64,000 nt of DNA, taken from an uncultured Gemmatimonadales bacterium. GTDB lineage: Bacteria; Gemmatimonadota; Gemmatimonadetes; Gemmatimonadales; Gemmatimonadaceae. How positions within the stretch are numbered: the first letter of the stretch is position 1; each line of letters starts with the position of its first letter. The position numbers and the translations under genes were made by a program. The notes beneath the pieces were generated by a model. That model did no database searches and was not told the DNA's origin. It saw nothing but the letters and a program-made list of their open reading frames with translations. Shown in pieces: positions 10,579 through 36,262 of this stretch. The stretch spans positions 2,912,001 through 2,976,000 of the forward strand of contig OY969695.1 in the NCBI GenBank assembly GCA_963701965.1, read 5' to 3'.

Positions 10579-11112
10579 CTATAAATGCCGTCCCTGGGCT
10601 CGCCGAACGAGGTCCCGCAGCTCTTCAGTCGCTCCAGTGCCGCCACCGGTAAAATTTGCATCCAACGGTATGAATAGGAGAACATCCGCAGATTGAGGAG
10701 CCACGTCGAAACGCACTCGGGTGAATCGCGGCCGATCGTATGGATGCGTTAGTTCGACGTGCGATATGCCAGACAACGGGATACGGCGCGTGCTCCTTCG
10801 AGTGCGCACTTCGAGCTCGTCTCCGACCAGCCACACATCCTTGAACCGACGTCCCCGATAAACACACCACGTTACAAGTGCGAGCCAAAACACACCCGTG
10901 GCGAAGATCATCCAGTGAACGTGCCCCGCCGCAAGAGCCTGCGCGATGCCGGGGATCTGGAATGCGAAACCACCGATTCCCACGAACGCCGGGAGGATCA
11001 GGCGATAGAAGACAGTGATGCTACGCGAGGAGAGCCGGCGTTGCCTGACGGGTATAGCAGTGGAACCGTCCCCGTCACCTGCTCCGGTCCCCTCAGCAAC
11101 TTCGTCTCTCAC
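10579..11112 (-). CDS. Two-TM membrane protein with C-terminal beta-rich domain; candidate immunity protein for RHS-1
   Basis: Co-oriented, 170 bp downstream of RHS-1; two hydrophobic helices. Confidence 0.55.
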   Translation of the reverse strand: MRDEVAEGTGAGDGDGSTAIPVRQRRLSSRSITVFYRLILPAFVGIGGFAFQIPGIAQALAAGHVHWMIFATGVFWLALVTWCVYRGRRFKDVWLVGDELEVRTRRSTRRIPLSGISHVELTHPYDRPRFTRVRFDVAPQSADVLLFIPLDANFTGGGTGATEELRDLVRRAQGRHL

Positions 11113-11282
11113 GGTGAATTTCGTCCTTGATGGGGGGCCTTGTCAGGACCTTTCGGACACATAACATCCCTCCACCCTCTGCGAAGTCAATCGAAATGCG
11201 TTTCCGGTACGCCTAGCGGCGACGGATTTCGTGCCAACGCAGCCTCCTTCGCCGCCGGTAGGTGCTCCCACTCCGATCCTCG

Positions 11283-14200
11283 CTAGTAATCCAGCAGGCC
11301 GCCAGCACAACCATAGCGGTATCCGTAATAGCGCCCCGGGCTCTGAATAGTGATGCAACCAGTCTTGGGCCCCAGTGGAATCGACAAACTAGGTGGCAAC
11401 CCGAAGCTTCCGCCGTTTCCCCAGTAGAACCCGTTCACGTAGAGTCCTCCTGCGAGTCCCCCACCGCTGATACCCAGACTCAAGGTAGTTGGTGGCCCGA
11501 GTGTGAAGTTCGTCACATTGGAACCGGATACAACGTTGCCTACGATTATGCTGTTCGTATTGGTCATTCCATCGGGGCCAAAAGTCGTGCAATTTTGAAC
11601 TATGCCAATGCTGCCACACAAGGTCTGCGAAATCTGGAAAGGACCGAACAATGACGTACTAGGCGGGGCGCCACAGGGACTTGATTGTGTGGAATTTCCG
11701 TAGTTGCAACTGGAAGGAGGAGGTGGTGGAGGAGGCGGCAGGGTTGAATTCGCATCGCCCGAGTCGCCGCCTCCCTGATCCGAACCGCCGTCGCTTCCGC
11801 CCTCCGGATCACAATCGGCAACAGACGGGTCCGCACAGTCCATCCCGCTCGGATCCCTGCCGTTGATCGGGTCTCCGCCCGCGAACGCGTATTGATTGAT
11901 CCCCGCTGAAAGGCCCAGTGGATCCGGCGAAATGAACCGACGCGTCGTGGGGTCATACCACCGCGCTCTCATGTAGTACAGGGAAGCAACACCTCCCTCG
12001 TAGAGCAGCCCTTTCCACCGCAACTGCGTCGTGTCGCCGGATGACAAGCCGACGGCCGCGGTCCCCCACGGCTCATACGTCAGTAATTGGTCGACGGTGT
12101 CCGCGTGAAACTCGGCAAAGACGTTGCCTAACGCATCCTGCGCGTAATAGTGAATGGCGCCCGCCAATGCTCCTGTAATCCGGGCCAACGGCTGATCTGT
12201 GCCACCCGGCATATACGCGAACTCGGCAATGCGGGTGTTCCCGCTGCTGTCCACAATCGCGAGGAGCTGGCCACTATCCCAGATGTAGTACTGATCGGGC
12301 TGGCCGCTCTCCGCACGATGCACCAACTGCCCTTGCGCATTGTATTCGTACGTGCGGGTAGTGGGTCCAATGATCTGCCGGAGCAGGCCGTCGGCACTCC
12401 ACTTGTAGGTCGTTGTCGCCGAGCCGGAGGTTGTACTCATTCGGTTCCCATCCGAATCGCTGCCGAACGTCAAGCCCGTCCCCGAACTCAGAGCCTTCCA
12501 CGCAGTCATCAAACCGTTGCCTGATGCAAACGTGGCTATCGTGTCTGTCGCACCGACCTTGATCGTATCGAGACCTTGCGCCGAATCGAACGTCAATGCG
12601 TACTGTTGTAGCAGGCTGTATTTGGTGGTATCGCCCTGATGACATCCGTTGCCCTGGAACTGGTGATTCGGACAGGTCGTAACGGTGCTCTTCCAGGTAC
12701 CCAATTGCCGGCCGATAAGCTCGCCGAGTTTATCATAGGTGAAGAACGCGACTGTGTCATTCAGCTGCACAGTGTTGAGGTCTAACTCGTTGATGCGGCC
12801 GGTCGGGTCGTATCCGTAGCTCCGAGACAGAGCACTGGTCAGCCCAGACCATGTGCTGGAGACCAACTGGTCCGTATCGGTGGTAGAGTCCACTCGCATC
12901 ACACTGCTCGGGTAGGTGACCGTATCGCGTCGACGGTCTGCGTCGTAACCAAAGAGCGCCCGCGAAGACCCTCCGAGCCTGAGGCTGTCGAGAAGGCCAC
13001 TGCTGGCATTGAAGAAATAGTGTCGATTGTTCGGTGTGAACGCGGTCGCCGTGGTTTTCAGACCGACCGAGTCGACGCGCCCAAGATTGTCATGGTGATA
13101 GTAGCGTCTGAAGCTCTTTCCATGAATATGCGTCGTCGTTGAGTCGAGCCATCCAAACGCGTCCGAGTAGAAGCTACTATCTGTCGACACCATATCATGC
13201 GTGACAGCGAGGTCCCCGGATATCGAGTACTGCATGATCTCGAGGGTGTCCGCATCCCCGCTGAACGCTGCGGGCCGATGCACGGCCGTGTCACGGCCGA
13301 TCCGGTCGTACCCGTAGGTGATTTGCTGCCCACGCCGGTTCGTTACGACTGCCGGGAGTTCGAACTTATTGTAAGTGGTCGTAGTCGTGCGGCTGGTCGG
13401 GTCCGTCTGACTCGTGGGAAGACCCAAGGCATTGTACACGGTCGTGTACCGCCGACCATTCGGGTCCGTGACCGACACCACGTGCGATGCGGAATCATAG
13501 GTGTAGGACGTCGGCCGGTTGAAGCTATCATGGACGACCGTCGCACGATTGAGCATGTCGTAAGTCGTGGTCGTCAAAGTCGTTTGCCCCGCCGTGGCAC
13601 TTCCTGTGACCGTTGACGTCCGACCACGACCATCGAATCTCTTAGACGTGAACCGGCCGCTCGGCGTAGCCGCCACACTGTCAAGATTGCCAGTCCTCGC
13701 GTCGTAGAACTGTACCGTCGTGTGCCCTAATGCGTCGACGAGCGCGCTATCCCGTCCCAGGTGGTCGGTGAAGTACGTCATCTGGTTGCTGCCGGCCACT
13801 TGTACCGAGTCGACATGGCCGCGCTTGTAGGTGCTGTCGTTGATGAAGAACGTCTGCGTCGGACCGCCACTCACGGTAATCGTACTCACCTCGCCGAACG
13901 GTCCGTACGTATATGTGGTGGTGTTTTGCCCGGCCGGCGTGCTCGACGTGAGAAACGGGCCAGTGTACTCGTAGTTGTCGGTCTTGCCACTGAAACTCTT
14001 GAACTGCGTCGGAAATCCGTTCGCGTCTCGTGTGTAAAAGGAGGAGATGCCAAACGGTATGTCGTACTGCAGCAGCTGGCCCCAAGGATCGAGCGTCACG
14101 AAGTAATTATGGCCCGCCGTGCTGAGCTCATTGGCGCAGGCGACGTTGTTCGACCGGAATGGCGCCGCCGGAGTGCTGGCACTCGTCCGCCCGGTAGGCA

Positions 14201-16193
14201 GCGCGCAAGTCTGGTATGGGTGAAAGGCCTGCCGGAGCGAGATAGTCGCGGGCAACGGCGATCCCGCGGTCCCGGTATCGATCAGCGTGGCCGGATAGAT
14301 GATCGTATCGACCTTCCAGGTCGTACTATCGTAGGCGTAGCGCGTCAGATTCCCGTTGCGGTCTGTCACCGAATTGAGCCGCCCCAGACCGTCGTATCCG
14401 AGTTTTGTAGTGTCGCCGCCCGGATCAATCCAGGCCGTGAGAAACCCACTGGCGTCGACCACAAGGTGCGTGACGCGGGCTTGCGCCGACGTCGAATCTC
14501 CGATCGTCCCGTCCGTATCCGGCTCGATGATCGAGCGGAGACCATTGGCGGTCCAGGTGAGCAGCCAGGCCGTGTGGCCGCCTCCCGGCTTCAGGCGCCA
14601 CGGGTCCGTGATCGAGTCGAGCCGGTTGTTGGAGTTGTACTTGTAATTGATCGTATCGTTCAACCGGTCAATCGTCCGAATGATCTGTCCGCTGGGTGCG
14701 TAGTACTCCTTGGACGAATCAGGGTAGACCACCTCTATCCCGCCGCCGAAGGTACTATCGGCACTCACGAATCGGAGCTGGTTCGCCACGTTGGCTCCTG
14801 GAGGAGCGGACCAGGTGCAACCCCAAGCGAAGCATTGCGCGTTGTTATACATGATCACCGACCCGTCGCCACGCCCAATGGTCTCGTTCTCCGACCCGCC
14901 GTCCTCCGGATTGAATCGGCCGTTCTGACCAAGAATGGTCCAGCCGTGAGCAATGGTCGAGCCTCGAGTATTGTGGATGACCACATGGTGCGACGAATCA
15001 GTCACGGTGTCGCGGTGGCTATCCTGATAGACCGCCACAACGGTCATCCTGAGGGGATAACTGCCATTGGCAAGTCCACTCGCGTCGAACACTCCGGAGA
15101 GTCTGTACGGCTTCGTCGAGCCGTAGACGGAGTCGCCTTTGAAGTAGATCGTGGTGTCGCCGTTCAGAAACACGATCTTCTGCCATGCGCCGCTCTGGTG
15201 CAGGAAGGCCGTGAGTTGCAACTGCGTGACCTTGTACGTCGTATCCGTGGTACCATGGCCAACGGTCACGTCAGCACTCAGGATCGGCCGCGCCGCAACG
15301 CGATCGCCGTTGTAGACCAATGTCACGGATCGCGCGACGTCCCGCGAGATGTAAGGGACCGTGCTGAGCGCCGCCGTCATCGCGTAACACGCCGAGTGGC
15401 AGCGGCTCTCATCCTGATCTTCCTGGTTGGTGTACGCCGTACTGACGACAAGCTGGGGCGCATAGTGAACCGCAATACTGACCGCCGCCGAGTCGGCATT
15501 GCCATTCCATCGCGCCTTGAGTTGCACCGCGCCGCTCGAAGCGGTCGCCGCGGTCTGGTATGTCACGATCACCGCGTGCAGTCCGGGCGGCACCGTATCG
15601 ATGCTCGGCCCGTGACAAGTCGAGATGCCCGATCCGGTGCAAGACGCCGTCAACGTGTCAATTGTGGTGCTGCCCGTATAGTTGTGGACGTAGAAGGTCT
15701 GCAATGTGTCCTGGTTGGGATTCACCAGTGACGGCCCTCCCGAGTCGATCACCGCGATAATCTTGCGTGTGATGGTGAGTGATGCGCTGGTGCAGGTTCC
15801 CATGTTACCGGCCAGCAAACCGCTGCATCCCCATGCTTGGAGGACATTGCCACTACCGATTGACAGCGAGTACGTCGCCGTCTTGGTCCAGCAGCCGCCG
15901 CTATAGGTCAGTCCCGTAATCGTGGTGCCGTTAAACTTGGCCGAATCGCCGGCCGCGGGACTCTCGCAAATGGAGATCATCTCGGTCCTGCTCGCAACGC
16001 TGTCGATCGTTGTCGAAGGATTGAACGTGATGGTCACTGGGTTGATACATGTCCCCGTGCACGCGTTCGGATTAGCCTGCGCTTGCGCGGTCCACGCCAG
16101 TGGACCCATAGTCGCCAGCGACAATACGAATAACAGCGCAGGGAGAATGCGAGACAGGGAGTACCACATCCACTGCGGGACTGACGCTGACAT
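11283..16193 (-). CDS. RHS/YD-repeat protein 1 with Sec signal peptide, Ig-like N-terminus and variable C-terminal tip (~1636 aa)
   Basis: ATG 16193 with AGAGG RBS; ...LLFVLSLA...TAQA|Q; many YDxxGR repeats; RHS core YYMRARWYDPTTRRFISPDP...NQYAFAGGDPINGRDPSG. Confidence 0.93.
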   Translation of the reverse strand: MSASVPQWMWYSLSRILPALLFVLSLATMGPLAWTAQAQANPNACTGTCINPVTITFNPSTTIDSVASRTEMISICESPAAGDSAKFNGTTITGLTYSGGCWTKTATYSLSIGSGNVLQAWGCSGLLAGNMGTCTSASLTITRKIIAVIDSGGPSLVNPNQDTLQTFYVHNYTGSTTIDTLTASCTGSGISTCHGPSIDTVPPGLHAVIVTYQTAATASSGAVQLKARWNGNADSAAVSIAVHYAPQLVVSTAYTNQEDQDESRCHSACYAMTAALSTVPYISRDVARSVTLVYNGDRVAARPILSADVTVGHGTTDTTYKVTQLQLTAFLHQSGAWQKIVFLNGDTTIYFKGDSVYGSTKPYRLSGVFDASGLANGSYPLRMTVVAVYQDSHRDTVTDSSHHVVIHNTRGSTIAHGWTILGQNGRFNPEDGGSENETIGRGDGSVIMYNNAQCFAWGCTWSAPPGANVANQLRFVSADSTFGGGIEVVYPDSSKEYYAPSGQIIRTIDRLNDTINYKYNSNNRLDSITDPWRLKPGGGHTAWLLTWTANGLRSIIEPDTDGTIGDSTSAQARVTHLVVDASGFLTAWIDPGGDTTKLGYDGLGRLNSVTDRNGNLTRYAYDSTTWKVDTIIYPATLIDTGTAGSPLPATISLRQAFHPYQTCALPTGRTSASTPAAPFRSNNVACANELSTAGHNYFVTLDPWGQLLQYDIPFGISSFYTRDANGFPTQFKSFSGKTDNYEYTGPFLTSSTPAGQNTTTYTYGPFGEVSTITVSGGPTQTFFINDSTYKRGHVDSVQVAGSNQMTYFTDHLGRDSALVDALGHTTVQFYDARTGNLDSVAATPSGRFTSKRFDGRGRTSTVTGSATAGQTTLTTTTYDMLNRATVVHDSFNRPTSYTYDSASHVVSVTDPNGRRYTTVYNALGLPTSQTDPTSRTTTTTYNKFELPAVVTNRRGQQITYGYDRIGRDTAVHRPAAFSGDADTLEIMQYSISGDLAVTHDMVSTDSSFYSDAFGWLDSTTTHIHGKSFRRYYHHDNLGRVDSVGLKTTATAFTPNNRHYFFNASSGLLDSLRLGGSSRALFGYDADRRRDTVTYPSSVMRVDSTTDTDQLVSSTWSGLTSALSRSYGYDPTGRINELDLNTVQLNDTVAFFTYDKLGELIGRQLGTWKSTVTTCPNHQFQGNGCHQGDTTKYSLLQQYALTFDSAQGLDTIKVGATDTIATFASGNGLMTAWKALSSGTGLTFGSDSDGNRMSTTSGSATTTYKWSADGLLRQIIGPTTRTYEYNAQGQLVHRAESGQPDQYYIWDSGQLLAIVDSSGNTRIAEFAYMPGGTDQPLARITGALAGAIHYYAQDALGNVFAEFHADTVDQLLTYEPWGTAAVGLSSGDTTQLRWKGLLYEGGVASLYYMRARWYDPTTRRFISPDPLGLSAGINQYAFAGGDPINGRDPSGMDCADPSVADCDPEGGSDGGSDQGGGDSGDANSTLPPPPPPPPSSCNYGNSTQSSPCGAPPSTSLFGPFQISQTLCGSIGIVQNCTTFGPDGMTNTNSIIVGNVVSGSNVTNFTLGPPTTLSLGISGGGLAGGLYVNGFYWGNGGSFGLPPSLSIPLGPKTGCITIQSPGRYYGYRYGCAGGLLDY

Positions 16194-16532: not shown

Positions 16533-16653
16533 CCCACGACATTCGTAGATCGCTAGGGCAAACTGCCAGTGGCGAGTCCCGACGCGGTGTCATATACTCG
16601 TCGCCCCGTTCCAGTCGCATCGTGCCGTCGTTTTGATTTGCATCCGACAATCA

Positions 16654-17505
16654 ATGATCTCAGCGTTGCCGCCGTTGGTTGCCGCAGGGGTACCCCCTGA
16701 AGAACGAGACGCGATCGACCGCGCTCTACGTCGCATTGCCCCCACAGAGTTCATTGCCCTACAGCAACTTGGGCCCTATCTGGACACTGGGCGATCCGCA
16801 TCTGGGTTCCTGATCGCGCTCTGGCCCCGCGACCGAATGCAGATCGAGGATTGGATTAGACGCCTCCATCGTGCGCGAGCAGCGACGCCGATCATTGCGC
16901 TCGTGCGCATGGTCGGTGAATGGCCCAATCAAGTGGTAGGCGCTGTTAGGGCAGGGGCCAGTCACTTCGCACTCGACGACATCGACAGTCTGCACAATGT
17001 GGTGGCTCGTGCCCTGGGAGACCTTCAGATCACGGCCGCGTGTGCGCAGACGGCGCGACACGTCATTCCATTGATGCCTCGCGCCGCCCACTCCACCATC
17101 GAGTTCTGCACAATGAATGCGGCGCGCCCCTTGGCAGTATTGGACGTCGCTAATGCTGTCCGCCTTCACCCCCGGAGCTTACATCGTCTGTTACATCGCC
17201 TTGCGCTGCCGTCCCCGTCCGCGACCATAAGTTGGTGCCGCCTGTTCGTAGCGGTTCACATGCTGTCGTCTGGTGCTCAGCGGGTGGATCACATCGCGAC
17301 CACGCTGGGATACGCATCGGGCTCGGGTCTGCGGAATATGCTGCGTCGCTATTGTGGCCTGACCACGTCTGGGACTCGCGAAAATGGCTCCCTCATTCAT
17401 CTTGCGCGCCTCTATCGCAGTGGCGACTTGAGCGGCCGTGGACAGGATGTGATTCAGAATGTCGATCCTCGCGAGCAGGCGTTGGCTCACGCCGCGGTGC
17501 TTTAG
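16654..17505 (+). CDS. AraC-family transcriptional regulator with degenerate receiver-like N-terminus
   Basis: VANAVRLHPRSLHRLL...WCRL...VDHIATTLGYASGSGLRNMLRRYCG double HTH; AVRAGA receiver-like motif. Confidence 0.85.
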   Translation: MISALPPLVAAGVPPEERDAIDRALRRIAPTEFIALQQLGPYLDTGRSASGFLIALWPRDRMQIEDWIRRLHRARAATPIIALVRMVGEWPNQVVGAVRAGASHFALDDIDSLHNVVARALGDLQITAACAQTARHVIPLMPRAAHSTIEFCTMNAARPLAVLDVANAVRLHPRSLHRLLHRLALPSPSATISWCRLFVAVHMLSSGAQRVDHIATTLGYASGSGLRNMLRRYCGLTTSGTRENGSLIHLARLYRSGDLSGRGQDVIQNVDPREQALAHAAVL

Positions 17506-17514
17506 GCAACCTGA

Positions 17515-18963
17515 GTGTTACACACATTGCGAAACGGCAATCTGCCCTCCGCCGTTCTCCTGGCTGATGGGCTGACGCGCGACTATCTGCTGCACCACGG
17601 CATCTGCCCGGTCGGTCACACTGATGCCGGTGCAGTCCGAGTGGCTGCCGCGCCGGGGGCGTTGCTCGAGGATGCGCTCGACGATCTCTGTTTCGTCTAT
17701 GGCCAGGAAGTCGTGGTGGAGCCCGCGAGTCGCGGGGACGTCGAGCGCGCGATCGAGCGCCTCACGACGCAGGCCGGCCGCGACATCGAGCTCGCGCGGG
17801 TCGACGCCGTCGAAGACGAGCGGACGGCCGACGTGCGCGATCTCGCCACCCAGCCGCCCGTCGTGCGCTTCGTCAACCTGCTGGTACGCGACGCGTACGA
17901 TGCCGCCGCCAGCGACATTCATCTCGAGTCGGCCCGCCATGGGCTCGGCGTCCGGTTCCGGCTCGATGGCGTCCTGACGCCGGCGCCCGAGCCGCCGGCG
18001 GAACTGGCGCACGCCGTGGTGTCGCGGATCAAGTTGTTGGCGGAGCTCGACATCGCCGAGCGGCGGCGCCCGCAGGATGGGCGCATCCGCGTCCGCCTCG
18101 AGGATCGCGAGCTCGATCTTCGCGTGTCGACCGTGCCCACGCTGTTCGGCGAGAGCGTCGTACTCCGGCTGCTCGATCGCGGCGGCCGTCCGGTCGCGTT
18201 GACCGAACTGGGAATGCCGGACGACATCCTGGCCGCCGTGTCGCGCCTCGCCGCACGACCCCACGGGATGATCCTCGTGACCGGCCCCACCGGCAGTGGG
18301 AAGACAACGACGCTCTACGCGGCGTTGCAGCGCCGCGACACGAAAGCGGAGAAGATCATTACCGTCGAAGATCCCGTGGAGTACGAGCTGCCGGGCATCA
18401 CCCAGGTGCCGGTCCATCGGCAAGCGGGCGTGACGTTCGCCGCCGCGCTCCGTTCGATCCTCCGGCAGGATCCCGACGTCGTCATGCTCGGCGAGATGCG
18501 GGATCCCGAGACCGCGGAGGTCGCGGTCCAAGCCGCCATGACCGGACACGTCGTGTTTTCGACGCTGCATACGAACGACGCGGTCAGCGCCGTGCCGCGG
18601 CTCATCGATCTCGGCGTCCCTCCGTATCTCATCGCGGCCACGGTCGACGGCGTGTTGGCGCAGCGCCTCGTGCGCCGGGTCTGCGAGACCTGCCGGGTGC
18701 CGTCTGGCGACGGTGTCAGTTGGGTACGTGGGGACGGATGCCCCACCTGCCGCGGCACCGGATACCGCGGACGACTCGGCGTGTTCGAGCTGTTCACGGT
18801 GAGCGAGGCGGCCAAGCACGCGATCGTGGCCGGCGCGTCGCGCGCCGAGCTGACGGCGCTGGCCCGAGGCGAAGGCATGCGGACGTTGGCCGAGGACGCG
18901 CAGGCGAAGGTCCAGGCGGGACTTACCACGATCGAGGAGGTACGCCGTGCGGCGGACGCGTAA
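17515..18963 (+). CDS. gspE: Type II secretion ATPase GspE
   Basis: ASDIHLE, LDIAERRRPQDGRI, GPTGSGKTT, TVEDPVE, LRQDPDVVMLGEMRD, TGHVVFSTLHTN, CxxC..CxxC. Confidence 0.95.
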   Translation: MLHTLRNGNLPSAVLLADGLTRDYLLHHGICPVGHTDAGAVRVAAAPGALLEDALDDLCFVYGQEVVVEPASRGDVERAIERLTTQAGRDIELARVDAVEDERTADVRDLATQPPVVRFVNLLVRDAYDAAASDIHLESARHGLGVRFRLDGVLTPAPEPPAELAHAVVSRIKLLAELDIAERRRPQDGRIRVRLEDRELDLRVSTVPTLFGESVVLRLLDRGGRPVALTELGMPDDILAAVSRLAARPHGMILVTGPTGSGKTTTLYAALQRRDTKAEKIITVEDPVEYELPGITQVPVHRQAGVTFAAALRSILRQDPDVVMLGEMRDPETAEVAVQAAMTGHVVFSTLHTNDAVSAVPRLIDLGVPPYLIAATVDGVLAQRLVRRVCETCRVPSGDGVSWVRGDGCPTCRGTGYRGRLGVFELFTVSEAAKHAIVAGASRAELTALARGEGMRTLAEDAQAKVQAGLTTIEEVRRAADA

Positions 18964-19399
18964 CCAGCGGCGGGGATTCACGCTCATCGAGATGATCGTG
19001 GTCATCGCCATCATCGCGACGTTGGCGGCGGTCGTCGCCCCGTCCGTCTTTCGCAACGTCGGGGACGCGAAGGTCAGCGCCGCCAAGAGTCAGATCGAAG
19101 TGTTCGCGCTGGCGCTCAACGCCTATCGGATGGACAACGACAACTTTCCGACCTCCGATCAGGGGCTGGAAGCGCTCCGCACCCTGCCGACGGCGGGCGA
19201 CCCGCCCCGCAACTGGCGCGGACCGTACCTCGCGCGGATCGTGCCGCTCGATCCGTGGGGACGGCCGTACGTCTACGTCGCCCCCGGAAAAGCCAACCCG
19301 CAGTCGTTCGATCTCTACACGCTGGGCCGGGACGGGAAGCCGGGAGGCGATGGGGAGGACGCGGACGTCACATCGTGGGGCGGCCCCGTCTCGCCGTGA
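18947..19399 (+). CDS. gspG: Major pseudopilin GspG
   Basis: RRG|FTLIEM, YRMDNDNFPTSDQGLEAL, NWRGPYL, PLDPWGRPYVY, GRDGKPGGDGEDAD. Confidence 0.95.
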   Translation: MRRTRNQRRGFTLIEMIVVIAIIATLAAVVAPSVFRNVGDAKVSAAKSQIEVFALALNAYRMDNDNFPTSDQGLEALRTLPTAGDPPRNWRGPYLARIVPLDPWGRPYVYVAPGKANPQSFDLYTLGRDGKPGGDGEDADVTSWGGPVSP

Positions 19400-20580
19400 C
19401 GTCGGCGTACGCGTACCGTGCGGCCCGCGGCGATGGCGCGATGGAGCTGGGCACGGTCGACGCGGCGAGCCGCGACGCGGCGTCGGTGGTCCTGTCGGCG
19501 CGAGGACTCTGGGTCCTCGACGTACGGCCGGCGGCGCCAACACTCGCCCGCCGGTCACTGCCCGTCGCCGATCTCGCGCTCGGCCTCCGCCTTCTCGGCT
19601 CCCTGCTGGACGCCGGTCTCCCGGTCGCGCGGGCACTGGCGGCATTCGGCGACGTGGCGCCCGACGCCTGGCGCGAGGCGATCCCCGGCGTCCGCCAGAG
19701 CGTGCGTGAAGGGCAGTCTCTCGGCGCGGCGCTGGCCGCGGCGCCGATCGACGTGCCGGCGGTCGTCATCGGCATGGTCCAGGCGGGCGAAGCCGGCAGC
19801 GGGCTCGCCGCCGCCGTCACCCGCGCGGCCGATCTCATGGAGTCCCAGGCGGCTACGCGGGCGGCCATCCGGGGAGCCCTCATCTATCCGCTGATCCTCA
19901 CCGTCGCCGGATCGGCGTCACTCACGCTCCTGGTCGGCGTCGTGTTGCCGCGGTTCGCGGCGATCCTCGCCGATCTCGGACAGACACTGCCGCCCACCAC
20001 GCGCGTCGTGCTCGATGCCGCGGCGGTCGTCCGCGCTGGTATCATCCCGGGGCTCATCGCACTGGTCGTCGGCCTCGGCGTCTGGCGGGTGTGGGTCGCG
20101 ACGAGCGCCGGTCGGGCGCAGTGGCATGCGTGGCTCCTCACCGTGCCCCTCCTCGGCGCGATCCGGCGCTCGGCCGCGGTCGCGCGCTCCGCGGCGGCGG
20201 TCGCGTCTCTACTCGACAGCGGAGTCCCGCTCGCCTCGGCGATGACCGCCGGTGCCCGCGCCGCCGGCGACGCGTCGCTCGAGACACGACTCAGCGCCGC
20301 GCGCGCCGCCGTCGTCGCCGGCGCACCCTTGGGTCGCGCGCTGCACGACGCCGCGGCGGCGACGTCGACCGTCGTCCGCCTCGTGCGGGCCGGCGAAGAG
20401 AGCGGCAGGCTGGCCGAGATGCTGGCGCGGGCCGCCGCGCTGGAGGCCGAGCGCGCGCGGCGGCTCGTGACGGGCGCCGTGCGGCTCTTGGAGCCCGCAT
20501 TGATCCTCGCCTTCGGCGGCGTCGTGGCGTTTGTCGCGGCGGCGCTACTGCAGGCCGTCTACAGTGTGCGTCCCACGTGA
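19396..20580 (+). CDS. gspF: T2SS inner-membrane platform protein GspF
   Basis: GTGA overlap with gspG stop; LLDAGLP, AGEAGSGL, ALIYP, LLDSGVPL, AGEESGRL, LLEP. Confidence 0.92.
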   Translation: MTSAYAYRAARGDGAMELGTVDAASRDAASVVLSARGLWVLDVRPAAPTLARRSLPVADLALGLRLLGSLLDAGLPVARALAAFGDVAPDAWREAIPGVRQSVREGQSLGAALAAAPIDVPAVVIGMVQAGEAGSGLAAAVTRAADLMESQAATRAAIRGALIYPLILTVAGSASLTLLVGVVLPRFAAILADLGQTLPPTTRVVLDAAAVVRAGIIPGLIALVVGLGVWRVWVATSAGRAQWHAWLLTVPLLGAIRRSAAVARSAAAVASLLDSGVPLASAMTAGARAAGDASLETRLSAARAAVVAGAPLGRALHDAAAATSTVVRLVRAGEESGRLAEMLARAAALEAERARRLVTGAVRLLEPALILAFGGVVAFVAAALLQAVYSVRPT

Positions 20581-24905: not shown

Positions 24906-26404
24906 GTTTCCCGCGCGCCGCGCGTGCCCTGTTCGTGATCGCGACAATGGCGGGCGCGACCCAGACATCGGCCCAACGCCCGGTCAGCGATCAGGGCGAC
25001 AGCGTCACGATCCACCTCGTCAATGTCGACCTCCGCGTTGCGGTCTCCGCGCTGGCGCCGTATCTCGACCGGCCGGTCGTATTCGGCGCGGTGCCCGCTC
25101 TCCGCGTGACGTTGGAGACACCGCACCCGGTGCCGCGCGCCGAGATCACGCGGCTGCTCACCGGCGTCGTGATATCGCAGAATCTCGATTTCACGATCGA
25201 TTCGACGGCGGGGCTCTATCGCATCATGCCGCACCCTCCGGCGTCACCGCCCCCACCTCCGGGCGGCATTCGCGGTGCAGACGGCATCGTTCGCGCGGCG
25301 GACGCCCCGCAACTCTTCGTCATTCACTTGAGTCATGCGCGGGCCGCTGACGTCGCGGCGACGGTGAACGCGCTGTACGGCCGCGCGAGTGCGTTGGGCG
25401 AGCCGGGTTCGGAGCGATCCGGCACCGGCACGCTGGGCAGTCAGCTGGCACAGAGCGCTTTTCAACCGCTGGCCACTCCAACAAGTCCCGGGAACCCGTC
25501 GCCCGCTGGCTCCGGCGGCCACGGGGCAACGCTAACGGGGGAAATCGCGATCATCCCCGACGCCGGAACCAACAGCCTCTTGATTCGCGCCAATGCCAGC
25601 GACTATGAGCTCCTCGCGGCCGCCGTCCGGGAGCTCGACGTGCGGCCCCTGCAGGTGCTCATCGAGGTGTTGATCGTCGAAGTCACGAAAAACTCGAACT
25701 TTGCGGCGGGACTCGGTCTCGCGTTTCCCACGCAGCAGGTCAAAGGCTCGCCCGTTAGTATCGGTGGTTCGACGCCGAGCGCGGGACTCGGCGACTTCGC
25801 GCTCAACGTCATGCGGAGCGGCGGACTGGCATTCACGGCCGCGCTGACGTCGGCCGCGACGAAGGGCGAGGCGCGGATTCTGTCGCGGCCCATCGTGCTC
25901 GCTGAGAACAATGAGGAGGCCGAGATCCTGGTCGGGAGCCAGCAGCCGTTCATACAGGTGCAGCAGACGCAAGTCGGCGCCGTTGCGCAGAACCAGGTCG
26001 TGCAGTATCAGGACGTCGGCACCAAGCTCACGGTCAAGCCCACGATCTCAACCGACGGCTACGTGCAGCTGCAGCTCACCCAGGAAGTCAACCAGGCCAC
26101 GGCTACGGTGCAGTTCAACGCCCCGGTGATCTCGACGCGCACCCTGCGCACGCGGCTCCTCGTGCGTGACAGCCAGACCGTCGTCCTTGGCGGGCTCTCG
26201 AGCCGCGAGAAGGACCGGACGTCGGAGGGAATACCGGTGTTGTCCTCGATCCCGGTCTTCGGGACACTGTTTGGACAGCAGAGCCGGACCGGCAGCGAAA
26301 CCGAGTTCTTCTTGTTCCTGACGCCGCGCATCGTCAAGACCGACGCCGACGCCGCGCGGGTGACCCAGCCGATCGATTCGATCATGCAGCGGGAGGTACC
26401 GTGA
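24896..26404 (+). CDS. gspD: Secretin GspD
   Basis: Signal peptide; LSHARAADVA, TNSLLI, LDVRPLQVLIEVLIVEV, ILSRP, YQDVGTKLTVKP, GIPVLSSIPVFGTLF, FLTPRIV. Confidence 0.95.
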   Translation: MAMSFPRAARALFVIATMAGATQTSAQRPVSDQGDSVTIHLVNVDLRVAVSALAPYLDRPVVFGAVPALRVTLETPHPVPRAEITRLLTGVVISQNLDFTIDSTAGLYRIMPHPPASPPPPPGGIRGADGIVRAADAPQLFVIHLSHARAADVAATVNALYGRASALGEPGSERSGTGTLGSQLAQSAFQPLATPTSPGNPSPAGSGGHGATLTGEIAIIPDAGTNSLLIRANASDYELLAAAVRELDVRPLQVLIEVLIVEVTKNSNFAAGLGLAFPTQQVKGSPVSIGGSTPSAGLGDFALNVMRSGGLAFTAALTSAATKGEARILSRPIVLAENNEEAEILVGSQQPFIQVQQTQVGAVAQNQVVQYQDVGTKLTVKPTISTDGYVQLQLTQEVNQATATVQFNAPVISTRTLRTRLLVRDSQTVVLGGLSSREKDRTSEGIPVLSSIPVFGTLFGQQSRTGSETEFFLFLTPRIVKTDADAARVTQPIDSIMQREVP

Positions 26405-27420
26405 GAGTAGCGACGACGATCGAGGATCTCCTGATCGGCGACTCGAGGGTGATGTCCGACCTGCGCGCACTCATTCGGCAGGTCGCGCGCTCTTCGCTGC
26501 CGGTCTTGGTGCGTGGTCCACGCGGAGCTGGCAAGGAGCTGGTCGCGCAGGCTTTGCATCGTGCCAGTGAACGCTCGGGTGCTTTCATCGCCTTCAATAT
26601 TTGCGCGATCCCGGACCCCATGTTCGAGGACGCGCTGTTCGGCCACGTCCGTGGCGCGTTCACGGGTGCGGTTTCGGATGCGCCAGGATACCTCACGGAG
26701 GCCCATCGCGGAACGGTCTTACTTGACGAAGTGACCGGGGTGGCGCCCGTCAACCAGCGCAAGTTGTTGCGCGCTCTTGAAACGCAGCGTTTTCGTCCGG
26801 TCGGCGGTCGAACCGATCGGCAAAGCGATTTTCGTCTTATTGCGGCGACGAACGATGACGTCGCTACGATGATCAGCGCGGGTCACTTTCGCGCAGACTT
26901 GGCAGACCGCCTGGCCGGAATTGTTGTCGACGTTCCTCCGCTCGCGAAGCGAATGGACGACTTGCCGTTGCTGGCGCGTCACTTCGTCACCGCGGCTCAG
27001 GTGCGACGACTGATGCACTTGTCCGATGACGCCGTCAGTGAACTGACAAGACACCATTGGCCCGGCAACGTCCGGCAGCTTCGCAGCACGATCGATCGTG
27101 CGATCGCGGTGACGGAGGGCCCGATCATTAGACGAGAAACAATTCTGTGGGCGCTGGCGAGCTCCGTCACGGAGACGGTCAGTCCGCCAGACCAGATTAA
27201 GAGCGTCTTCGAGCGTCGACGACTGATGACACTGCTTGAGGACCATGACTGGAATGTCGCCCGCGCTGCGGCTGCTCTCGGCGTGCATGAGACGACGGTC
27301 TACCGGCGCATGCGCAGACTCGACCTTGATCTTCCCAGAGAGACGCGATGGATCGCGCGCCGGCCGTCGGATGTTGCCAACGCTGGGTCGACTGCTGCAC
27401 GCGAGGAATCGCCGACCTGA
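26401..27420 (+). CDS. Sigma-54-dependent activator (AAA+ and Fis-type HTH) with no N-terminal sensory domain
   Basis: GPRGAGKE, LFGHVRGAFTGA, LLDEV, RLIAATN, WPGNVRQL, NVARAAAALGVHETTVYRRM; GTGA overlap with gspD. Confidence 0.92.
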   Translation: MRVATTIEDLLIGDSRVMSDLRALIRQVARSSLPVLVRGPRGAGKELVAQALHRASERSGAFIAFNICAIPDPMFEDALFGHVRGAFTGAVSDAPGYLTEAHRGTVLLDEVTGVAPVNQRKLLRALETQRFRPVGGRTDRQSDFRLIAATNDDVATMISAGHFRADLADRLAGIVVDVPPLAKRMDDLPLLARHFVTAAQVRRLMHLSDDAVSELTRHHWPGNVRQLRSTIDRAIAVTEGPIIRRETILWALASSVTETVSPPDQIKSVFERRRLMTLLEDHDWNVARAAAALGVHETTVYRRMRRLDLDLPRETRWIARRPSDVANAGSTAAREESPT

Positions 27421-27883: not shown

Positions 27884-30800
27884 GTGATTCGGCTCTCGAA
27901 GCATGTCCCCGGTTTCGCACTGGCTTGTGCCATACTGCTCGTGGCGCGTGCCGGAAGTGCCCAGACACCTCCGCCACACCTGTCGTTCAGTGTCGGTGGT
28001 GTGGTTGGGTCCGACACTCTCCACGAGATGATCACAGCGTGCTCCGGGACGACGCCGAACAACACGACATGGGCGGTCACGTTCAACGGGGCCACGGTCA
28101 CATCATCGTTCCCGCTGGTTAGCGGTGGAACGTGTACGTCAGGGTCGCCGCAGCACGGCACGGGGATCGTCACACCGTTGCTCATGGGCACCAACACAAT
28201 GACCGCCCACTTATGCGACCTCGGTACCGTGCGCACGGACCCTCCGGGTTGTGTGACGAACACTCTGACGTTTACGCACGATTACGTTCAGGTGACTCCG
28301 AAGAATGCGACAGGAAAGGGCGTGGTCAACGAACCGGACTCCGTGCTCTTCACTGTTCAGAATCTCCGCCCCGCGGCCTCCACTTTTGCGCTCACGGTCA
28401 CATGTAGTGGCACTGGTGTCTCGGCGTGCACTGCGCCGAGCTCGATCACGGTCCCCGCTTCCTCGAGCAGCCCAGTGCCAGTGCATTTCAATGCCGGTGC
28501 ATTGAACTCCACTGGTACTATGCAACTGAAGGCAGTCTACACCGCAAACACGGCTGCCAAGGACTCCGGTGCGGTGATTTTCACGGCGCAATGGAACTCG
28601 TTTCTCTCTGTGAACACCAGTTACACGAATCAGGAGGATCAAGACGTCGGACTCTGTGCGCAGGCCTGTTTCGCGAATGCCCTCACGGTGTCTACCGTGC
28701 CGTACATCTCCAGCGACACCCCTCGTCGGGTTACCCTCGCGTACAACAGTGACGGACATGCTGTGCGCCCCATCATACGTGCGGACGTCACGATGGCCGC
28801 CGGCGCCCAGGCCGTGCAGGAGTTTCAGCTGCAGGCGCAAGTGAACGGTTCTTTCGCCACCTTCACGAACGGTGAAACGATTCTTCACTTCAGCGCCGTA
28901 CCCGTCAACGGCACGACAATGCCATTCCGGCTGGCCGGAGTCTTCGATGCGAGTACGCTGACCTCCGGTGCTTATGGGCTGAAACTGATCGTCACCGCCA
29001 TTATTCGGATCATATGGAGCAGGTAGTCGACAGTTCGCACGTGCTTGGCATCGTCAACACTCGTCACTCGTCGATCGCAGACGGTTGGTCTGTGTCGGGG
29101 GTACCGTTCCTCTATAGCTACTATCATCCGGACGGCACGTTCGACCAACACATGCTCTTGGTGCCGAACGGCAATGGCTCGGCCGTCGTATACGGACCAG
29201 TGGATTGTGTCACTACCTGCCACTGGGGTGCCCCCACCGGCGTATACAATCAGATCCAGGGCCACGACAGTGCGGGTCTCCACAATCAGGGATACGAGAG
29301 ACTGTACCCTGACACATCAAAGGAAGTATTCAACACTACCGGGCAGCTCGTGTACACCGTCTCGCGTAGCGGCGTGGACACGGTGTTCTACACGTACGAC
29401 GGGTGCTGCAATGCGGGACGCTTGATGACGATCTCCGATCCGCATCGTATGAACGGGGCTACGCACGCAGTCACCACGATTCACTACAGCGCAAACGGTA
29501 TTTCGTCGATCGTCGAGCCCGGCGCGAATGGCGCGAGCGGTGGTGGTCGTACGACCACATTCACGGTCGGTACCGACAGTCTCTTACGCGTGGTCACCGA
29601 TCCTGATAGCGTGACAACACACTTTGGATACGATAGCCAGAGGCGGCTCGACTCTTTGACCGATCGACGCGCTAGCCTGTGGGTCTTCGCCTACGAGCCA
29701 GTAGCCTCGAAGCTCACCCAGACGACGCTGCCGCAAGTGCCGATCGACAACGGCGCCGGCTCCACGACGCTACAACACCCTGTGCTCAATCAGGCGGCGT
29801 GGCACCTCGTCGGAGTGCCAACGAGCGCGACCGGGACCGGCACCCCAGCAGTGCCGGTGCGCGCGGACACTGTGCGGGCGAGCGTGACTGACGCTAGTGG
29901 CCAGACGACGCGATTCACTATCGACAAATGGGGTCAGCCGATGGTCAGCACCGATCCAATCGGGCGAGTGACATCGATCGTGCGTGGCGGCCCCGGCCCA
30001 TTCGCGACACAAGTCACGCACCCCACTGGTATGGTCGACACCTACATTTACGACCAATTCTTGACCGGACACCTCAACCAGTCGATCATCGCCGGTGGGA
30101 ACGCAACTGTGTATAGTTACGGCGCCGCGAACCAAGTCCAATCACAGTCGGGCACCAATCAGCCATCCATCACGTACACCCTCGGCCTCCATGGCCGCGT
30201 GGATTCGGTCGCCGTGGCGGGCGTGGTCCGCACACGTATTACATATGATGCTTTGCAACGGCCGATCGTCGTCGCCGATGCCAAGTTTGATTCGACGACC
30301 TTGCACTACGACGCGCGTACCTTGAATCGCGACAGTGTGACGAGTGCTCAGAGTCGCCGATTTGCGAAACGGGTATTCGATGCCTTCGGACGGGATTCCG
30401 TGCGGCGTGCGTCGGGCGAGCCTTCAAGAACAATGTTGTATGACGTCATGAATCACGTGCTCCAGACTTCAGACGGCGTGCACCCATTGCCCACGACATT
30501 CGCCTACGACTCGCTGCATCCGCGCGCCGTGACCGATCCGAAGGGACAGACGTTCGCCACGACCTACAATGCTCTTGGCTGGATCACACAGCGGACCGAT
30601 CCCACCGGGGCATCCGTGGCCTTTACTTATACGCTGAATGGTCTCGAGGCGAGCATCACGAATCGCCGGAACCAGCGCGTGACGAAACGCTATGACGCGG
30701 TCGGGCGGCTCATCGCGAAGCACGACCCAGCGGTCGCAGCCGCGGACACATTTAGTGTCTCGGCGAATGGCAGGGTAGGCGTTGTCGCGAACGGTGTGTC

Positions 30801-32649
30801 CGTCGACACAGCCTACACGAGTGTGCTGGGTGTCGTGGACTCCGTCACAACATGGATGGGCGCTCATCGTTTCCATCGCGCCTACCAGTACGACAGCCGA
30901 CATCGCTTGACATCAATGGTGACAACAACCACCGCCACTGGCATCGATTTCATGTCGCGGGGGGTGACCTGGGATGCCACTACCGACGAACCGTCCCAAC
31001 TGACGCTCAATACGGCCACGATTGGGCTCCATCATGATTCGACATTTTTTCTGACATCGGTCAGTTTCCCCGGAGGTGCAACGCGATCCGACACCCTGTC
31101 GTCGGCCGGGCTGCTGCTGAATTCGCGATTCACGCCGGCGCCGGTCGATTCGGCGCTGGGGCGGAGCTACGCCTATGACTCTGCCTATCGCATCGTGGAG
31201 ATCGACGGACGCTTTTCGGGAGCATCCGAGCCTGTGCGGGCCTTCCAGTTTGATGGAATCGGAGAGCTGGTGCGTGATCTGCGTGCAACATCAACATCGT
31301 CGCGCACGTGCACAATCACGGGCACCCAGATTACCGATTACCAGTGTACGACGACCACGGGCTTGACGACGAACCAACTGTACGGGTTTCTGTATGATGC
31401 GGCCGGCAATCAGACACAGATCGTCGACTCGACTCATGGCAATGCGATCACCGTCGCCGTGTACCTACCGGGAAACCGCGACAGTACCTTCGGCGCCCTG
31501 ACGTATCAGCGCGATGCCGATGGCAACCGTACCGGCAAAAGCGGCGCAGCGACCGCCATCCAATATGGGTGGAGCGCTGACGGCCGCCTTCTGTCCGTTA
31601 CCGCTGGATCCTATGTACTCAACTACGACTACAACGCTCTTGGGCAGGTCGTGCGCCGCCGCCGCAATGGGACGGCGGACCGTTATTACCTCTGGGATGG
31701 CAATAAGCTCTTGGCCGAGCTCGATGGAGCGGCGAACGCCCGTGTCAATGAATACGCGTATTACCCAACTGCTGATCGGCCGCTGGCTGTTATCACCGGG
31801 GCGGCGGGCGCAGCGGTGCCGCATTACTATGCCGTCGATCAGGTTGGTGCCGTTATTGGCACGTTTACGTCGGGCCCGGAGCAAGGCCTCACATACGATC
31901 CCTGGGGCAGGCTCGAAAGTGCCACCACGACTACCGGTGACACGACGCACCTTCGGTGGAAGGGCCTGCTGTGGGAGGGTGATTCGACGCAACTCTACTA
32001 CGTCCGGAATCGTTGGTACGACCCGGTAAGTCGTCGCTTCATTACCGAGGATCCGCTTGGTACCACCAGCGGCACGAATCAATACACCTTCGCCGGTGGT
32101 GATCCAGTCAACGCCAACGATCCGACAGGGCTCGCCTGCCGGGAGCACAGCGATCTCGACACGTGCTTCTCCGGCCCGGCCGGGATAGACGGCTTCGGGA
32201 CGCCGGACGGATACGCCGGGTTCTCGGGACCGAGCACGCTACAAGACATCGTGAACTCCGTGTGCCCGGGTGCGGGTTCTTGCGATGTGACGATTACCGA
32301 TCCGGCCGCCATCCAAGAACTCTTCGCGGACAACTACTCAGCGTACTTCATTGACTTTCAGTTCCAGGACCAGTTGCCAGGTTGTCCGGACGGAACTAAC
32401 AAGTTCGGGGGGCCTGGTCCCGTCGATGATGCGACGTCGGGTTCAACGATCGGGATGTATAACTACACCTTGACGCTCTGGGTGTGGTTCCCCGACCTTA
32501 GTTCGGGCGACTTTTTCACCAAGAGCACGGCCATTTATTCAGGCAGACTGGATGTCAACTCGCGTTTCTCTTCGAGAACATATTTCGTGCCCTCTGCCAC
32601 CGTCGACTGCGCTACGGGCAACGGCCACGGGACGGCTATCTCGCCCTAA
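27884..32649 (+). CDS. RHS/YD-repeat protein 2 with Sec signal peptide; split by an apparent 1-bp deletion near 29001 (~1588 aa if repaired)
   Basis: AGGAGG then GTG 27884; ...AILLVARAGSA|Q; both halves align colinearly with RHS-1; core YYVRNRWYDPVSRRFITEDP...GDPVNANDPTG. Confidence 0.9.
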
Positions 32650-32657: not shown

Positions 32658-33203
32658 ATGATGGATCAATTGGACACCGTGCCGGATGATGCTAACCTTC
32701 GAATGGCGCGGGCGACCCTCGTCGCGCTGCATAGTTCGATTGCCGAACACTACCGTCCCTCCCAGAGCCCGGTGGTATTTCTGCCGGGACTTCGGCCCTT
32801 CGATGTCGCCGGAGCAGTGGAGTACCTGGCGCGGTTGCCCAAGCCGGTCGTGTGCATTGGGCTCGAAGCCGCTGGCGCCCTGGTGATCGGGTGCTGGGAG
32901 GCTGGTTGCATAGAGACTGGCACTGACAGTAGCACGGACCGCGAATTCGCGCGTCAAGCTTGCGATGGGATTTTTCGCAACGCGGCTCTGCGCGGTGCGC
33001 CGGCGCGAGCCGAGGTGAAAGGCGTTACAGAAAGTGTGCAGCTGGAGGGGCCCGAGATCGAGCGGTGGCTGCGAGACTTTGCGATGCCCCTTGCCGTCCG
33101 TAGCGTCAGGTGGGGAGACCGTGAGGGTCGCTTGACGGGAGTAGACGCCGTCTTTCTCACGAATGCCTGGCGCCCAGGAAACTTCTCAGGTCGTTCGTGG
33201 TGA
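32658..33203 (+). CDS. Hypothetical protein, candidate immunity protein for RHS-2
   Basis: Starts 8 bp after RHS-2 stop, same strand, 181 aa. Confidence 0.6.
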   Translation: MMDQLDTVPDDANLRMARATLVALHSSIAEHYRPSQSPVVFLPGLRPFDVAGAVEYLARLPKPVVCIGLEAAGALVIGCWEAGCIETGTDSSTDREFARQACDGIFRNAALRGAPARAEVKGVTESVQLEGPEIERWLRDFAMPLAVRSVRWGDREGRLTGVDAVFLTNAWRPGNFSGRSW

Positions 33204-35112: not shown

Positions 35113-35526
35113 ATGAACATGTTCCCGATCGCTCTCGTGGCGTTGCTGTTTCTCGGAGCGTTCGCGTTGGCATTGGTCGACCTGCACCTCGTGCGCCGAG
35201 GACGGGGGCGGGCCGTTTATACAGCCATGGGCGTCTTCGTCGCTGTCGGTACGATTGTCTACGGTGCCGCCAGTCCGTGGTCAGCACTGCTGCCGAACCG
35301 CTCGTGGGACAGTGTGCTTCGCCTACCCTGGCACCTCCTGCCGACACCGGTCATCCTGTTTGGCGTGCCCGCTCTTGGGCTCGCGTGGTGGACATCGGGC
35401 GCCTCGCCTGACAAACCAGCGCGGTCCGATGTCGTATCGACGATCCTCCTGACGATGGTCCTCCTCATGGCCGGCGCCGGCGTGCTCGCGATCTTTCTCG
35501 GATTGCTGGGCGGCCTTATGAGCTAA
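35113..35526 (+). CDS. Four-TM membrane protein, paralog array member B
   Basis: GAGG RBS; ALLPNRSWDSVLRLPW...LFGVPALGLAWWTSGAS...PARSD. Confidence 0.72.
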   Translation: MNMFPIALVALLFLGAFALALVDLHLVRRGRGRAVYTAMGVFVAVGTIVYGAASPWSALLPNRSWDSVLRLPWHLLPTPVILFGVPALGLAWWTSGASPDKPARSDVVSTILLTMVLLMAGAGVLAIFLGLLGGLMS

Positions 35527-35630: not shown

Positions 35631-35780
35631 TTCAACATTTGGGCGATCGGTTCCTCTGCGGCGTTTTTCCTCGGCCCGATCACCCTAGCCTTCCTCAACG
35701 TCCCTCTCGTATGGCGGCGGCGACGGTGGGCAGGGTACGCGGCGACTGTCGCGGAGGTGGTCATACGCGCGGTGTCACTA
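35631..35780 (+). pseudogene. Degenerate N-terminal fragment of the same membrane-protein family
   Basis: WAIGSSAAFFLGPITLAFLNVPLVWRRRRWAGY aligns with FFLVGPFVLAFLDLYFVRRQRSQMVY. Confidence 0.5.
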
Positions 35781-35843
35781 TGCGGCTGGCGAAGAACGGC
35801 TACGCCCGCGATCATAGATTGCATCCGTCAGGAGCGCGCCACG

Positions 35844-36262
35844 ATGACCGTGTGGGAGAGCGCCTTGTGCGTGTTCTTTCTCGTCGGCCCTTTGTGCTCG
35901 CCTTTCTCGACTTGTACTTCGTGCGCCGCCAGCGGTCGCAGATGGTCTATGTGGCGGCGACGCTCTTCGTCGTTCTCGGCATAGCGCTCTTCGGGAGGGC
36001 ACAGGTGAGATACGGCTATGTGCTGCTTCCAAACGGCACGTTCGGCAGCATTCTGGGAGACCCCTGGATGCTCATTGGACCCCCGCTCGCACTCTTCGGA
36101 CTGCCGGCAGGCGGCCTGGCCTGGTGGACCTTAGGAGCGTCGCTGGAGGAACCAGCGCGGGCGGATGCGCGGCACACGCTCTTCGTCGCCATCGCATTCA
36201 TCGCCGCCGGGATGGTGGCCGGCTTGCTGACGGCCATGGCAACGGGTCTCGTCTGGATCTGA
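35844..36262 (+). CDS. Four-TM membrane protein, paralog array member C (1-bp deletion near 35889)
   Basis: AGGAG then ATG 35844 MTVWESALCVFFLVGP, shifting into FVLAFLDLYF...VLLPNGTFGSILGDPW...LFGLPAGGLAWWTLGAS...PARAD. Confidence 0.7.

Follow-up and report, generated by a model that had tools for sequence, protein, structure and literature searches.

The locus described here lies in a 64,000-nucleotide stretch of contig OY969695.1 (positions 2,912,001 to 2,976,000 of the forward strand; assembly GCA_963701965.1) from an uncultured Gemmatimonadales bacterium. We refer to this whole stretch as the window and count positions from its first letter. The locus encodes an accessory type II secretion system (T2SS) that belongs to a separate clade within the Gemmatimonadales, and a signal-peptide RHS gene lies on either side of it. 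Its principal genes are the following.

10579..11112, minus strand: candidate immunity gene of RHS1 with two predicted membrane helices (from its position after the tip and hydropathy; no family match)
11283..16193, minus strand: RHS1, 1,636 aa in one open reading frame (ORF), with a predicted Sec-type signal peptide, three predicted immunoglobulin (Ig)-like domains, a YD-repeat shell, a PxxxxDPxG core end and a tip
16633..17505, plus strand: AraC-family regulator (HTH_18)
17515..18963, plus strand: gspE ATPase with an N-terminal MshEN-like domain (PF00437, 436 bits)
18947..19399, plus strand: gspG major pseudopilin (TIGR01710, 163.7 bits, cut-off 88.85)
19396..20580, plus strand: gspF platform protein (PF00482 twice)
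20577-20879, plus strand: gspH minor pseudopilin (TIGR01708/TIGR02532)
20869-21225, plus strand: gspI minor pseudopilin (position and sequence features; no family match)
21215-21745, plus strand: gspJ minor pseudopilin (N_methyl)
21742-22653, plus strand: gspK minor pseudopilin (T2SSK_1st)
22650-23849, plus strand: gspL (position and conserved synteny; no family match)
23846-24427, plus strand: gspM (PF10741)
24435-24905, plus strand: short gspC, 156 aa (position and conserved synteny; no family match)
24896..26404, plus strand: gspD secretin, 502 aa, with one Secretin_N domain after an N0-like region
26401..27420, plus strand: sigma-54 activator without receiver or sensor domain (Pfam)
27884..32649, plus strand: RHS2, with the architecture of RHS1 in two frames (27884-29026 and 29014-32649) and a 165-aa tip
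32658..33203, plus strand: candidate cognate immunity gene of RHS2 (its homologue at locus L064 follows a weakly similar tip)

As proposed in a preliminary description of this DNA, the gsp genes form an overlapping operon in the order gspE-G-F-H-I-J-K-L-M-C-D, from 17515 to 26404. At nine of its ten junctions the neighbouring genes overlap, by 4-17 nt, and at the tenth a 7-nt gap separates gspM from gspC. Its identification as a T2SS also stands: the E, G, F, H, J, K, M and D proteins match families, and the assignment of I, L and C follows position or sequence features. The best NCBIfam model for GspE is TIGR02533 (gspE; 529 bits, under the cut-off of 630), with pilB second at 484 bits. For GspD it is the gspD model, where the score of 233 bits falls under the cut-off of 351 because the protein is short, and the top solved relatives are GspD proteins. 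GspC, at its length, cannot accommodate a PDZ domain. The genome has one prepilin peptidase gene (PF01478), located elsewhere and outside the module.

Two regulatory genes that the preliminary description had missed frame the operon, the AraC gene before gspE and the sigma-54 activator after gspD. The activator gene overlaps gspD by 4 nt and is kept 3' of gspD in most relatives, and synteny also places AraC homologues divergent from solo RHS genes. A search for a sigma-54 promoter between activator and RHS returned a loose -24/-12 pattern in 6 of 31 regions (shuffle mean 1.5, maximum 5). We claim no such promoter, because the matches lie mostly within signal-peptide coding sequence and none is in the window.

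Both RHS genes have the features attributed to them at the outset. RHS1 has a signal-peptide-like start (..WTAQA/Q), 10 Cys within residues 39-290, the core end PINGRDPSG and a Gly-rich tip of 186 aa; RHS2 has a similar start at 27884 (..ARAGSA/Q), 8 Cys and the core end PVNANDPTG. The two tips, when compared, show no relation, and small ORFs lie downstream of both. TIGR01643 and TIGR03696, the RHS repeat and core families, score over cut-off in the window, with PF25023 covering the YD shell, and no PAAR, VgrG or Tc (toxin complex) family was found among the window ORFs scanned, as had been noted. The description of an RHS protein of about 1,600 aa on each side holds for RHS1, which is intact, and fails for RHS2, where similarity to RHS1 changes frame at about 29002-29008 to leave pieces of 380 and 1,211 aa. 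Public contigs from 3 runs do not reach across the break near 29005. Of 55 same-genus probe proteins with a match of at least 60% in the genome, 41 were whole and 3 frame-split, so residual assembly errors are plausible; the break is possibly an assembly error, or else a real mutation. At locus L064, counterparts of the RHS2 tip (25% over 85 aa) and of the gene after it (34%, E 2e-8) stand side by side, as would be expected of a cognate tip/immunity pair.

Linkage of the secretin clade to RHS genes

A GspD scan found 263 relatives, of which the best 80 were analysed with flanks of up to 10 kb. These 80 are labelled as Gemmatimonadota (77), Gammaproteobacteria (1), Chloroflexi (1) and one unassigned source, and the order that recurs among them is E-G-F-(H)I-J-K-L-M-C-D-activator-RHS. 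RHS homology was present in the fetched flanks of 44 of the 80 loci. It was nearby in 35 of the 49 loci with at least 5 kb of downstream sequence (2 of the 35 being orphan fragments only) and in 19 of the 30 with both flanks of at least 8 kb, at a median distance of 1.7 kb from gspD (n=33). The same genome encodes a second T2SS (L-M-C-D-E-F order, no RHS nearby, at about 3.294-3.305 Mb of the contig, C1), and this locus together with the 32 best relatives of its GspD served as a control set. RHS genes were nearby in none of these 33 loci, including the 30 with at least 5 kb downstream and the 23 with both flanks of at least 8 kb. Homologues of the gsp cluster usually adjoin signal-peptide RHS genes (35/49 against 0/30 in the control clade), and the check proposed in the preliminary description is clearly passed. 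Eight weaker matches of the control search were kept out of the control count; five belong to the window's clade, all five with RHS (one duplicating an earlier locus), and three to a third T2SS type, one of them with RHS.

A GspD tree against other T2SSs, suggested earlier as a check, sets the window secretin in a separate clade (87 rows; SH-like approximate likelihood-ratio test, SH-aLRT, 99) from the D-E-F clade (33 rows, 100), and the FastTree and LG+G4 trees agree. The third T2SS type is sister to the window clade and has occasional RHS neighbours, with G-F..K-D-E order in some cases (L161-L163, L046-L047, L180, L216). A genome may also hold more than one secretin-activator-RHS unit, in tandem or duplicated, and the RHS then differs from unit to unit (L168; L062 and L063).

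The association is also seen at the level of whole genomes. The sample was a single draw of 251 genomes from the order, and clade GspD was defined by a threshold of our choosing, at least 530 bits, which was reached in 37 genomes from 26 genera and 3 families. The RHS core (TIGR03696) was found in 35/37 genomes with clade GspD versus 57/214 without; this is the independent measure, because the GspD and N-terminal profiles were built partly from sampled genomes. With the N-terminal profile of the RHS family, the counts were 33/37 versus 37/214 at E 1e-12 and 32/37 versus 28/214 at E 1e-30. The very small Fisher p-values overstate the association because kin genomes are not independent. In a phylum-wide draw of 301 genomes, 32 matched at E 1e-140; only two of these lie beyond the order, and neither reaches 530 bits.

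Within this association the cargo changes. The gsp-adjacent RHS proteins are distributed over the entire RHS family tree (in which two rows labelled solo adjoin partial gsp genes), secretins that are 98% identical carry RHS domains that are 20% identical, and the secretin and RHS identity matrices correlate weakly (Mantel rho 0.24, 34 loci). Near-identical secretins therefore stand beside unrelated family members, which implies that cargo has been swapped while the link persists. Such repeated re-pairing favours a functional link over a single ancient hitch-hike.

Canonical GspD has domains N0-N3. The window GspD and 5/5 clade relatives tested have a single Secretin_N domain, compared to two plus N0 in the other clade.

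The cargo family and its known counterparts

The members of the RHS family share a plan of signal peptide, Ig-like stalk, RHS shell, hypervariable tip and downstream immunity-like gene. Signal peptides were called by a hydropathy and cleavage heuristic, not SignalP. This heuristic was passed by 32 of 47 distinct gsp-neighbouring RHS ORFs (8 of the failures being fragments or lacking a start) versus 2/50 GspE and 3/58 activator ORFs. At E 1e-30 the N-terminal profile matches 1,387 clusters among 50%-identity representatives. Of 149 newly listed representatives, 104 have the core end, these 104 having lengths of 884-4,123 aa, and 58 of the 88 newly listed core-end representatives that start with Met pass the signal-peptide heuristic. 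A lipobox was found in 0/47 neighbouring RHS ORFs and 1/88 family representatives. The N-terminal stalk ranges from one to many Ig-like repeats, with up to 25 matched stretches.

AlphaFold models of RHS (predicted local distance difference test, pLDDT, 82.5 for 1,026 residues and 87.9 for the first 412) show the YD shell immediately after three beta-sandwich domains. The predicted shell matches type VI secretion system (T6SS) RHS structures and teneurin structures (Foldseek, including 9ifo), and for the predicted N-terminal domains the matches are limited to generic Ig-like folds (best Z 11.3). The third of these is an Ig/fibronectin (FN)-like sandwich in the multi-domain model, with no teneurin among its top matches. 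Sequence motifs had suggested a teneurin-like assignment, which we rejected because no NHL propeller family was found and the models place the three sandwiches directly before the shell.

The tips are hypervariable, with 66 tips falling into 53 clusters, and toxin or enzyme families score over cut-off in 6 of the 54 scanned. These are Tox-REase-7 (twice), Ntox21 (followed by CdiI_N), TreTu_C, eCIS_core and Peptidase_M15_3; Tox-REase-7 occurs on a gsp-adjacent full-length protein, and Ntox21 with CdiI_N in a gsp-adjacent orphan. Immunity families exceed the cut-off in 2 of 16 downstream ORFs scanned, CdiI_N and Imm21 being seen. The preliminary description had left the choice between toxins and adhesins open. 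We favour toxins over adhesins because domains of known antibacterial toxins, accompanied by immunity genes, occur among the tips found in relatives.

Small PF08334 genes, which encode a GspG-like globular domain without a prepilin motif, were observed in RHS cassette arrays at these positions.

L189, 5812-6483: PF08334 gene
L190, 5426-5947: PF08334 gene
L210, about 9369-9614, minus strand: PF08334 gene
L095, below 238, minus strand: PF08334 gene
L184, about 4114-4407 and 609-866, minus strand: two PF08334 genes

Four of the six directly follow an HExxH-containing tip, a motif present in 7 of 66 tips overall. These genes may form an immunity family with a pseudopilin fold that counters metallopeptidase tips, and could be annotated elsewhere as a lone 'gspG' beside Rhs.

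The preliminary description knew of no characterised example. A precedent for T2SS-dependent RHS does exist, although a dedicated full gsp cluster was not found described. The 1,398-aa RHS bacteriocin Bcn-A of Xanthomonas perforans loses activity in an xpsD mutant (PMC7259588). As is proposed for the window proteins, Bcn-A is an RHS/YD toxin with a downstream immunity gene and secretin-dependent extracellular activity; the gsp order is similar, the Xps operon reading xpsE, F, GHIJKLMCD (PMC7259588, PMC11981180). Unlike the window proteins, Bcn-A uses a general virulence T2SS encoded elsewhere, the signal peptide reported in the available text belongs to ORF4 and not to Bcn-A, and Bcn-A is modelled with a plug and beta-propeller (PMC7259588). 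In the window, by contrast, a separate gsp clade with its own regulators lies beside a predicted toxin that has a predicted signal peptide and Ig-like stalk and no propeller.

A preprint associates 180 Xanthomonas (XRhs F VIII) and 56 Ralstonia (RRhs F II) Rhs toxins with gspG, and predicts T2SS export from gene neighbourhood while stating that this is not functionally confirmed (bioRxiv 10.1101/2025.05.08.652813). Only gspG is named in its available text, within 5 kb upstream or 3 kb downstream, and its figures may show more gsp genes. Compared to XRhs F VIII and RRhs F II as that text presents them, the window clade has all 11 gsp genes linked and comes with a control clade. The 'T2SS/Sec-dependent' polymorphic toxin class of Zhang et al. 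2012 (PMC3482391) resembles the window family, as predicted here, in its signal peptide, RHS repeats, variable C-terminal toxin and immunity gene. In that survey, the term T2SS stands for the default Sec pathway and Table 1 gives '-' as the neighbourhood signature, whereas the window family has a signature in the gsp clade and activator.

Bacterial teneurin-like proteins (TLPs; PDB 9ifo) likewise combine a Sec signal, variable N-terminal adhesion domains, a YD shell and a polymorphic toxic tip, with no evident delivery machinery (PMC13018210). TLPs as defined in that paper need an FN-plug, an NHL propeller and a YD shell, and those of Gram-negatives are predicted lipoproteins, whereas the window RHS proteins have neither NHL nor lipobox; Gemmatimonadota lies outside the six TLP phyla given there (PMC13018210). 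The shell fold and DPxG core end are shared with T6SS RHS effectors (Tse5, 8cp6; RhsA, 7q97; Tre23, 7pq5) and Tc C subunits. Unlike these, the window RHS proteins have no PAAR, VgrG or TcB part and instead carry a signal peptide and Cys-rich Ig-like domains. We rejected a T6SS effector identity on the lack of an N-terminal PAAR or VgrG, on the signal-peptide-like starts and on the position of the only PAAR gene found in the genome, which sits at the T6SS locus (VipB, VgrG-type, PAAR; about 4.42-4.43 Mb of C1). A Tc complex identity was rejected because no TcA or TcB family occurs in the RHS proteins or the scanned window ORFs.

In the full-text literature searched, mostly open access, we found no description of a complete gsp cluster dedicated to RHS toxins, nor of such a system in Gemmatimonadota. 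T2SS export of RHS toxins has been suggested before; what appears to be undescribed in that literature is a conserved T2SS clade with its own regulation that is tied to a large family of signal-peptide RHS proteins.

Export route and alternatives

Judging from the linkage, we consider that this T2SS clade is probably a dedicated outer-membrane exit for predicted antibacterial RHS polymorphic toxins. In the proposed route, the RHS protein would be exported by Sec and its signal peptide cleaved, in keeping with the heuristic predictions and the lack of a lipobox. Periplasmic folding would follow, in which the Ig-like stalk would form disulfides, as conserved Cys pairs suggest, and the predicted RHS shell would enclose the tip; the pseudopilus would then push the folded protein through the short secretin. 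By analogy with known RHS proteins, the Ig-like domains may bind the target cell and self-cleavage at the DPxG site may release the tip, while the gene after each tip would protect the producer. The products of RHS genes that stand alone in other parts of the genome would be served by this machine in trans. More tentatively, and with the chances somewhat against it, this T2SS subtype could be an interbacterial weapon in which the short secretin, the PDZ-less GspC and an activator specific to the subtype would be adaptations for pushing fully folded RHS shells with their Ig stalks (about 900 to more than 4,000 residues) across the outer membrane.

Several observations weigh against a dedicated exit for toxins. 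RHS genes are missing nearby in 14 of the 49 loci with long downstream flanks, and in three genomes that have retained the T2SS cluster (G035, G096 and G159) no YD repeats were detected. The linkage is asymmetric, in that among 60 genomes that strongly match the N-terminal profile of the family a full clade GspD is present in only 32. Among ten genomes checked for secretins and GspG, five hold intact family members and showed neither a GspG scoring over cut-off nor a locus with a GspD-type secretin, at completeness values of 97% (G155, 3 contigs), 100% (G094), 98% (G044), 100% (G025) and 97% (G029). The secretins in these five are PilQ-like or Tad-like, beside pilin genes or isolated. RHS proteins from T2SS-less genomes are scattered in the family tree and not limited to dead ends. 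The control sample draws 12 of its 33 loci from a single genus, RHS2 is broken as assembled, and neither window tip has a toxin or enzyme family in the Pfam scan or a usable Atlas match. The term 'self-contained module' in the preliminary description is too strong, given that solo RHS genes are common, the prepilin peptidase is encoded elsewhere and some T2SS-less genomes hold intact family members.

A first alternative is that a shared regulon or island hotspot links the genes and that the RHS proteins, brought to the periplasm by Sec, leave it otherwise, by the type IV pilus secretin PilQ, outer-membrane vesicles or lysis, with the T2SS helping partly or exporting something else. We judge this unlikely, although the five near-complete T2SS-less genomes speak for it, four of them lacking VipB as well, and vesicles are a known alternative exit in Xanthomonas (PMC11981180). 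Solo RHS genes often retain the activator (L015, L028, L197, L205) or AraC (L016, L018, L024, L185), and regulator-RHS cassettes therefore move without gsp genes. The RHS genes are also lower in GC (59-60%) than the gsp genes (70%) and flanks (67-70%), and border insertion sequence (IS) remnants. Against this explanation, the 14 RHS-less long-flank loci have no other conserved large secreted gene that could serve as an alternative substrate, and the link outlasts the replacement of RHS by distant family members. Genome G155 has at least 21 RHS cores, with long orphan arrays at contig ends and no T2SS found (L197-L199, L219-L223), and the activator beside one of its RHS genes is of the after-gspD type (59% vs 47%). 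G152 has a remnant of a clade-like gspD directly beside a transposase. The G155 arrays and activator and the G152 remnant are compatible with loss or non-assembly of the T2SS.

Two other explanations keep the T2SS as the exporter and differ from a dedicated toxin exit in what follows. Contact-dependent display or delivery, in which pseudopilus and secretin hold RHS at the surface or press it onto a neighbour with no diffusible release, would agree with a stalk of one to many Ig-like repeats, as expected for reaching out, and with the smaller number of secretin N domains. We regard it as improbable: the near-absence of a lipobox leaves no obvious surface anchor, Bcn-A activity sits in the supernatant (PMC7259588), and T2SS passage would still be required, only the last step being different. 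That the RHS proteins are exported adhesins or kin-recognition proteins with inert tips seems to us distinctly improbable. The Ig-like stalks would suit such a role, as would the 48 of 54 scanned tips, both window tips included, that match no toxin or enzyme family over cut-off; against this role, some tips carry known toxin domains, nucleases among them, downstream genes match CdiI_N and Imm21, and orphan core-tip-immunity arrays and a recurring tip/immunity pair are seen.

The literature leaves open by which route RHS toxins with a signal peptide pass the outer membrane (PMC13018210, PMC3482391, bioRxiv 10.1101/2025.05.08.652813), and this locus sets an 11-gene machine next to its probable cargo, the second T2SS clade providing a natural negative control. 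If the dedicated-exit interpretation is correct, the T2SS would join the type V, VI and VII secretion systems as a dedicated polymorphic-toxin weapon, its substrates would be at or above the known T2SS size range, and a little-studied phylum would gain its first described competition system. Should the subtype indeed be a weapon, it would be the first machine dedicated to exporting RHS toxins with a Sec signal from bacteria that have two membranes, and it would serve a family of more than 1,300 sequence clusters.

Borders of the module and other genes

The genes at the two edges of the module are as follows.

7213..9934, plus strand: transposase/integrase genes (IS remnants; Pfam rve, HTH_Tnp_1), the left edge of the module
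10050..10466, plus strand: small ORF with an N-terminal hydrophobic segment, no family match
33197-34123, plus strand: small ORF with an N-terminal hydrophobic segment, candidate orphan immunity gene (hydropathy)
34659-35090, 35098-35526 and 35639-36262, plus strand: three related membrane proteins, candidate orphan immunity genes (mutual similarity 34-44%, hydropathy)

The region 7213-9934 is IS3-like and is split by a second integrase-domain ORF. The genome is a single 5.1-Mb contig and holds a third intact signal-peptide RHS paralogue of 1,519 aa with HExxH in its tip (C1:362650-367209; L009:7651-12210), which adjoins secD/secF-like genes and is remote from all gsp clusters. An orphan core-tip fragment lies at C1:3057402-3058226, and type IV pilus genes are also present in the genome.

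Elsewhere in the window, a lone PF00437 (PilT/GspE-like) ATPase fragment at 1072-2055 adjoins FecR and extracytoplasmic function (ECF) sigma genes. To the right of the module, a lower-GC stretch contains a Phd/YefM antitoxin (37015-37308) and a DUF6036 nucleotidyltransferase (40676-41239), and an ArsA ATPase is encoded at 55544-57460.

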